64,000 nucleotides of DNA from Escherichia coli (lineage in GTDB: Bacteria > Pseudomonadota > Gammaproteobacteria > Enterobacterales > Enterobacteriaceae), in the NCBI RefSeq assembly GCF_003018255.1, contig NZ_CP027440.1, one strand, 5' to 3'. The position numbers and the translations under genes are program-made. Every line of letters starts with the position of its first letter. Position 1 is the first letter of the stretch. Under the pieces are notes generated by a model. That model ran no database searches, was not told where the DNA came from, and saw nothing but the letters and a program-made list of their open reading frames with translations. Positions 3,406 to 3,423 of the stretch are shown here, in pieces.

Positions 3406-3423
3406 AAAATTGTTAACAATTTT
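3406..3423. promoter_or_regulatory. perfect 18-bp palindrome AAAATTGTTAACAATTTT in the aceF-lpd intergenic (lpd promoter) region
   Basis: self-complementary sequence read directly; ~210 bp upstream of lpd ATG. Confidence 0.45.

Follow-up and report, generated by a model that had tools for sequence, protein, structure and literature searches.

Introduction

ArcA, an oxygen-responsive repressor, is phosphorylated by ArcB once micro-aerobic or anaerobic growth leaves the quinone pool reduced. The lpd promoter of Escherichia coli is ArcA-regulated, with a start site 195 nt upstream of the ATG, and co-transcription of lpd from the pdh promoter has also been described (PMC2759082). The ArcA site of lpdA was given by Park 2013 (PLoS Genet 9:e1003839, PMC3798270) as TTGTTTAAAAATTGTTAACAATTTTGTAAAATA, at 127679–127711 in MG1655 and -38 to -6 in the promoter, with repeats spaced by 11 and then 12 bp (Tables S3/S4) and with an ArcA box, ttgtttaaaaattgttaa, of 21 bits. 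The same work reports ArcA ChIP-seq peaks at 127646 and 127683 in two replicates (Table S1), and lpdA expression 6.1-fold up in an arcA mutant (p = 1.1e-6; Tables S5/S6). In its sigma-70 occupancy column lpdA carries a "-", and repression by exclusion of RNA polymerase is its general conclusion. Binding of ArcA-P to lpd DNA is credited to Cunningham 1998 (FEMS Microbiol Lett 169:403) both by Table S6 of Park 2013 and by PMC2759082; in vitro binding in E. coli is thus cited here second-hand, through papers that refer to Cunningham 1998. In Plesiomonas shigelloides, another member of the Enterobacteriaceae, ArcA-P shifts the lpdA promoter in EMSA, and ArcA is 7.6-fold enriched at that promoter by ChIP-qPCR.

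Operators of the icdA and acs type (Park 2013; Park & Kiley 2014, mBio 5:e01684-14) likewise consist of three TGTTA-type repeats that overlap sigma-70 elements. Their published footprints are 33–37 bp, and their repression is attributed to RNA polymerase occlusion. The lpd site departs from them in having its third repeat at 12-bp rather than 11-bp spacing, and in a middle repeat that is extended to a perfect 10-bp palindrome with mirrored flanks. The PhoP box is similar in that it repeats a GTTTA-like hexamer directly, with a period of 11 bp, and in that its regulator belongs to the family of ArcA, and lpd matches it with 1 mismatch in 12; it differs in that the link of PhoP to lpd is solely an in-silico listing (PMC5775216), beyond which we found none. 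Within the same operon, PdhR has its operator at the pdh promoter, AATTGGTaagACCAATT. The outer arms of this operator, AATTG and CAATT, are similar to those at lpd, but its half-sites are 3 bp apart whereas those at lpd abut, and PdhR is without binding at the lpd promoter.

Here we describe a perfect palindrome in the lpd promoter. It is contained in the lpd ArcA site of Park 2013 and of Cunningham 1998 (the latter as represented in the papers citing it), which is the same locus and the same bases, and there is no functional difference from that site. The word "palindrome" has no occurrence in the main text of Park 2013 (PMC3798270), and the dyad is a descriptive addition to that account.

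A perfect palindrome between aceF and lpd

The window, a 64,000-nucleotide stretch of E. coli DNA (RefSeq assembly GCF_003018255.1, contig NZ_CP027440.1), was first annotated from its letters alone. That first-pass annotation reported an exactly self-complementary 18-mer in the aceF–lpd intergenic region, on the independent promoter of lpd. All of this is correct. In the window sequence AAAATTGTTAACAATTTT, at 3406–3423, equals its own reverse complement, and 18 bp is its maximal length because the flanking A3405 and G3424 are unpaired. The spacer that holds it is 324 bp long, since RefSeq ends aceF at 3307 and starts lpd, with its ATG, at 3632, and the promoter hexamers and the start site at 3437 match its position. 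Coordinates are collected in Table 1.

Window positions convert to MG1655 (NC_000913.3) by a local offset of +124280, which we checked over 127400–128100; in these 701 bp there are 2 substitutions and 0 indels. The substitutions are at 3517 (G in the window, A in MG1655), within an ERIC element, and at 3742 (C against T), within lpd, and because of them the window is E. coli but not MG1655. The 351 bp round the palindrome match E. coli chromosomes between aceF and lpdA.

By count alone the palindrome has no significance. It is the sole perfect palindrome of at least 16 bp in the 64-kb window. The naive expectation for 18-bp palindromes is 64000/4^9 = 0.24, and first-order Markov simulations of the window gave an expectation of 0.28 perfect palindromes of at least 18 bp per 64 kb, with at least one in 24% of simulated windows. 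The early remark that such a dyad is unlikely by chance is therefore true in a weak sense: fewer than one is expected, yet about a quarter of simulated windows hold one. Since the count carries no significance, we argue for non-randomness from conservation instead (see below).

A sigma-70 consensus scan returned TTTAAA-17-TAAAAT at 3402–3430, with 9/12 matches, and the start site has the right spacing for this -10 hexamer. The palindrome begins with the last 2 bases of the -35 hexamer, fills almost all of the promoter spacer and stops at -14.

A strong terminator-like hairpin is placed between aceF and the lpd promoter. Its stem, AGCCGGCC/GGCCGGCT, has 8 pairs, 7 of them G-C. The hairpin is conserved across Enterobacterales; the hairpin scan that detected it lists it on the minus strand.

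Table 1. Features of the lpd promoter region and further ArcA matches in the window
Feature	Position in window	Strand	MG1655 position	Source or remark
aceF stop	3307		127587	RefSeq annotation
Terminator-like hairpin after aceF, AGCCGGCCcaacGGCCGGCT, then T-run	3315..3340	+		read from sequence; hairpin scan
ArcA-P operator, three direct repeats	3399..3431	+	127679-127711	-38 to -6; Park 2013 Tables S1/S3/S4/S6
ArcA direct repeat 1, TTGTTTAAAA	3399..3408	+	127682 (published)	published 9.4 bits
lpd promoter -35 hexamer, TTTAAA	3402..3407	+		consensus scan
Perfect 18-bp palindrome, AAAATTGTTAACAATTTT	3406..3423		127686-127703
Dyad motif in lpd promoter				AATTGTTAACAATT
ArcA direct repeat 2, TTGTTAACAA, itself a 10-bp palindrome	3410..3419	+	127693 (published)	published 11.7 bits
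ArcA direct repeat 3, TTGTAAAATA, overlaps -10 hexamer	3422..3431	+	127705 (published)	published 10.7 bits
lpd promoter -10 hexamer, TAAAAT	3425..3430	+		consensus scan
lpd transcription start site (G)	3437	+	127717	derived from ArcA site -38..-6, Park 2013 Table S6
lpd 5' leader	3437..3631	+		outer stem 3449-3455 / 3603-3609
127-bp ERIC/IRU-type repeat within leader hairpin	3475..3601	+		context, outside operator
lpd (lpdA) CDS, regulated gene, lipoamide dehydrogenase	3632..5056	+	127912 (ATG)	ATG 3632
Further ArcA PWM matches	7086-7103; 7108-7125; 16865-16882	+; -; -		acnB / gcd boxes and an extra match

The palindrome in the ArcA operator

The palindrome falls entirely within the published ArcA site (3399–3431) and is centred on repeat 2. 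It takes in just the end of repeat 1, the whole of repeat 2 and 2 bases at the start of repeat 3, and both promoter hexamers (3402–3407 and 3425–3430) are inside the site as well. We take it to be, with high probability, the middle of the known ArcA-P operator, which overlaps the lpd sigma-70 promoter. The element is already characterised, as the ordinary known ArcA regulatory site of lpd. The first reading, as a candidate operator, is borne out to this extent: the palindrome lies inside a documented operator, the published ArcA site supplies the documented binding at the dyad, and ArcA, one of several factors that had been listed for comparison, is the documented regulator.

A position weight matrix (PWM) was made from the 114 other ArcA boxes of Park 2013 Table S3, with lpdA left out. 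The lpd box at 3399–3416 scored 21.6 bits with this matrix and ranked first over the 64 kb, among all positions on both strands; this is more than the best training site (training range 9.3–21.3 bits). The second-best match in the window overlaps it, at 3413–3430 on the minus strand, with 19.5 bits. Repeat 2 scored 10.5 bits on either strand. Repeat 3 was better fitted on the plus strand (TTGTAAA, 8.7 bits) than on the minus strand (ATTTTAC, 4.7 bits). Judged from sequence alone, the orientation of the repeats at the lpd site is ambiguous.

Two further published ArcA boxes, at acnB with 17.1 bits and at gcd with 14.1 bits, were recovered by the PWM with the sequences given in Park 2013 Table S3, together with an extra match of 13.1 bits on the opposite strand, adjoining the acnB box. 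In MG1655 the acnB and gcd boxes stand 96 and 103 bp away from where the local offset would put them, which shows that the window strain has indels relative to MG1655 downstream of lpd.

That the two best matches overlap in opposite directions could suggest that two opposed ArcA boxes (3399–3416 plus, 3413–3430 minus) share the self-complementary TTGTTAACAA, and that the dyad itself is selected. ArcA-P dimers might then dock either way and cover both promoter hexamers. We think this quite improbable. The minus-strand signal may be an artefact, because GTTAAC is palindromic and near-matches to it score on both strands; repeat 3 fits the plus strand better, as given above, and its conservation is also explained by its being the -10 hexamer; and the published analysis has all three repeats on one strand (Park 2013, PMC3798270). 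Evidence from other species falls on both sides of this reading and is taken up in the next section.

Conservation across the Enterobacterales

Within the species the site hardly varies, with the 70 bp round the palindrome identical in 5162/5424 complete E. coli genomes. For wider comparison we made alignment A1 from lpd-anchored loci of 80 Enterobacterales species, covering the 300 nt that precede the ATG. Upstream of lpd the exact 18-mer was found in 24 of these 80 other species, and in 19 of the 24 it is 20 bp long; the 10-mer TTGTTAACAA was present at the loci of 36/80 species. Conservation outside E. coli had been set beforehand as a test of the operator proposal, and the 24 species with the exact 18-mer bear the proposal out. 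Counted by alignment row, the palindrome at the homologous centre was of 20 bp (CAAAATTGTTAACAATTTTG) in 19, of 18 bp in 6 and of 10 bp in 12, with shorter palindromes of 8 bp in 8, 6 bp in 7 and 4 bp in 27. The 18-bp form belongs to the window, a second E. coli genome, E. albertii and three Kluyvera species, and all six rows carry the change C3405 -> A.

The two arms were not conserved alike. Across the 80 species, identity to E. coli was 55, 96, 55, 56, 87, 97, 65, 98 and 98% at successive positions of the left arm (3406–3414) and 98, 98, 98, 90, 92, 97, 98, 53 and 98% in the right arm (3415–3423). Thus positions 3406, 3408, 3409 and 3412 stand at 55–65%, against 97–98% for their partners 3423, 3421, 3420 and 3417. 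Corresponding values were 97, 98, 83, 7, 55 and 96% for the -35 hexamer (3402–3407) and 98, 98, 96, 91, 30 and 100% for the -10 hexamer (3425–3430). Conserved blocks recur with the period of the repeats: GTTT at 3401–3404 (83–98%), TTAAC at 3413–3417 (98%) and GTAAA at 3424–3428 (91–98%). Near-invariance across the order is limited to the right arm of the palindrome and the -10 hexamer. The near-invariant block is TTAACAATTnTGTAAAnT, which is made of repeat 2, repeat 3 and the -10 hexamer, and not of the whole dyad; equal conservation of the arms is seen only within the Enterobacteriaceae-type promoter allele. The step from a long perfect dyad to a dimeric regulator that reads the dyad, as made in the first-pass annotation, does not hold up here: ArcA-P reads direct repeats at 11–12 bp, and the arms are unequally conserved.

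Substitutions in the alignment rows affected one arm at a time and were never matched on the other arm. A3418G occurs in Kosakonia, Pectobacterium and one Enterobacter; A3419T in Kosakonia oryzendophytica, Phytobacter diazotrophicus and Hafnia; T3410A in Escherichia sp. ESNIH1; and A3409T in Rahnella, Ewingella, Buttiauxella and Dryocola.

An ArcA PWM match of at least 15 bits was found at the homologous place in nearly all of 79 species. With Enterobacteriaceae-type promoters the plus-strand box scored 17.6 to 21.6 bits, and only one species fell below 20 bits. The same box scored between -17 and +10 bits in Erwiniaceae, Yersinia and Serratia. There, repeat 2, repeat 3 and the -10 hexamer, when read on the minus strand, gave 15.3 bits, which was the best match in nearly all upstream regions of these groups. 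Persistence of the minus-strand box where the plus-strand box is lost speaks for the opposed arrangement described above. So does the finding that ArcA composition predicts the dyad in only 3.7e-4 of draws (see Discussion), yet it is kept at the loci of 24 species. Against that arrangement, one-arm substitutions are tolerated in Kosakonia, Pectobacterium, Rahnella and others.

A second dimeric helix-turn-helix regulator might instead read the 18–20 bp dyad and share the site with ArcA, a reading to which we assign a very low probability. The perfect 20-bp palindrome is conserved in 19 Enterobacteriaceae species, and lpdA has been attributed to regulons besides that of ArcA. However, across the order the arms are unequal, the consensus fits for FNR, CRP, PdhR and Fur are at background, and our literature search found no such factor. 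Moreover, repeat 1, which lies outside the dyad, is equally frozen in the very species that keep the 20-bp palindrome, and the constraint is therefore not specific to the palindrome.

Two forms of the upstream half of the promoter were read from the columns homologous to 3392–3412 (alignment A1, L002–L081). The first, TTGTTTCAAA(A/T)TTGTTAAC, is that of Enterobacteriaceae, Pectobacterium, Rahnella and Ewingella, and the second, GGTT(T/G)GCAGTTT(A/G)TTAAC, is that of Erwiniaceae, Yersinia and Serratia. The split between the forms crosses family lines, Rahnella being a member of the Yersiniaceae, and for this reason suggests either an old polymorphism or recombination.

Other regulators and structures

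The PhoP box, (T/G)GTTTA-N5-(T/G)GTTTA, is matched by TGTTTAaaaatTGTTAA at 3400–3416 with 1 mismatch in 12, a quality reached only twice in the 64 kb, and in Shigella flexneri this site is an in-silico candidate (PMC5775216 Table 5). On this basis the site could be a PhoP box through which PhoP-P regulates lpd. We regard this as highly unlikely. The evidence is a pattern match, lpdA is not among the EMSA-confirmed genes (PMC5775216), and repeat 1 is not GTTTA in most species, where it reads GTTTC or GTTTG. ArcA and PhoP both belong to the OmpR/PhoB family and have similar half-sites, and at lpd it is ArcA occupancy and ArcA-dependent expression that are documented (Park 2013, PMC3798270). We regard the match as a probable family resemblance between half-sites of the OmpR/PhoB type.

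The palindrome is almost certainly not an operator for PdhR, FNR, CRP or Fur. Its arms, AATTG...CAATT, resemble the PdhR operator AATTGGTaagACCAATT, but the half-sites abut here and PdhR needs a 3-bp spacer. Best fits of PdhR, FNR, CRP and Fur to the site had 5/12, 3/10, 4/10 and 8/19 mismatches, against the usual FNR, CRP and Fur consensus strings and a PdhR string quoted from a paper; matches of FNR and CRP quality occur in the window 660 and 2300 times. Published Plesiomonas assays detected no binding of PdhR, FNR or cAMP-CRP at the lpdA promoter, and the Plesiomonas paper states, after Cunningham et al., that PdhR is not bound at the E. coli lpd promoter.

Degenerate IHF and Fis patterns fit the site with 1–2 mismatches, which carries no information in DNA so rich in A/T. 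One compilation places lpdA in the Fis and CRP regulons; our literature search found this regulon membership only, and no coordinates of Fis or CRP sites at lpdAp.

A palindrome may also act by folding, here as a DNA cruciform or, where read-through gives a pdhR-aceEF-lpd transcript, as an RNA hairpin. The sequence can pair into a stem of 7 bp closed by a 4-nt loop. However, this stem, all A-U/G-U-poor, is weak (-4.1 kcal/mol as RNA, -4.2 as DNA), its z-score is about -1, with 44 and 37 of 200 shuffles folding at least as well, and there were no compensatory changes among the aligned species. We judge a role in folding to be extremely unlikely. An Rfam search over 3290–3660, which takes in the intergenic region and the leader, returned nothing at gathering score; the best scores were below threshold, at 29.7 against 60 for OrzO-P and 26.1 against 93 for CssrA.

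The lpd leader

Downstream of the operator, the lpd leader holds a conserved hairpin with an outer stem CCGGUGG (3449–3455) / CCGCCGG (3603–3609). Among 41 distinct Enterobacterales leaders that lack ERIC, this stem is paired in 38–41. It shows almost no covariation because its sequence is nearly invariant. The hairpin, variable in its inner part, encloses an ERIC element, and for the K-12-type leader the folding energy is -81 kcal/mol. No Rfam family matched the leader hairpin.

The core of the 3475–3601 element matches the ERIC1R and ERIC2 primer sequences, from which we take it to be of ERIC/IRU type. Its ends are CATACCC and GGGTATG. The element is polymorphic, being present in 3432/5426 complete E. 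coli genomes and absent from the rest, including O157:H7 and ST131, and for this reason the lpd leader measures about 81 or about 195 nt by strain. Elements related to it are found at this place in E. albertii, Entomohabitans, Raoultella and Serratia, and also in Pectobacterium betavasculorum, Erwinia persicina and Yersinia pekkanenii.

Discussion

The palindrome in the lpd promoter is best placed within a direct-repeat operator. By the published data ArcA occupies the three direct repeats from -38 to -6, and ArcA-P so bound would cover the -35 and -10 hexamers and keep RNA polymerase off. Repression by ArcA would then let lpd follow sucAB rather than aceEF.

The symmetry of the site is most likely incidental and not what ArcA reads. 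The middle repeat has a self-complementary core, GTTAAC. To the left of this core is the A-rich tail of repeat 1, such as usually follows a repeat, and to the right is the T-rich lead-in to repeat 3 and the -10 hexamer. The dyad is best read as a by-product of the GTTAAC half-site core and its A/T-rich flanks. Among ArcA boxes whose first repeat has GTTAA, the repeat continues with C, giving GTTAAC, in 9/36. When three repeats in the 11+12 bp layout were drawn according to the position frequencies of ArcA, a dyad of at least 18 bp arose in only 3.7e-4 of the sequences. Some symmetry is thus expected from the ArcA core, but a perfect dyad of 18–20 bp is not predicted, and because of the rarity of such draws we keep ArcA composition as a caveat and not as the full explanation of the dyad. 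Some selection for symmetry is conceivable, since the dyad is perfect, and usually 20 bp long, at the loci of 24 species. Still, it is unlikely that the dyad is selected as such, whether through docking of ArcA-P in either orientation, with opposed boxes over the -35 and -10 hexamers, or through an additional dimeric factor.

What is new in our account of this known operator is descriptive. The ancestral form of the dyad in Enterobacteriaceae is of 20 bp; invariance across the order is confined to repeat 2, repeat 3 and the -10 hexamer; and there are two promoter "alleles" of the first repeat, which are not distributed along family boundaries. The case also serves as a calibration, in that a striking palindrome in a promoter was part of a direct-repeat operator and not a dyad operator. 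The control of lpd by ArcA is a textbook case in the regulation of central metabolism: when oxygen falls, it couples the synthesis of lipoamide dehydrogenase to the genes of 2-oxoglutarate dehydrogenase.
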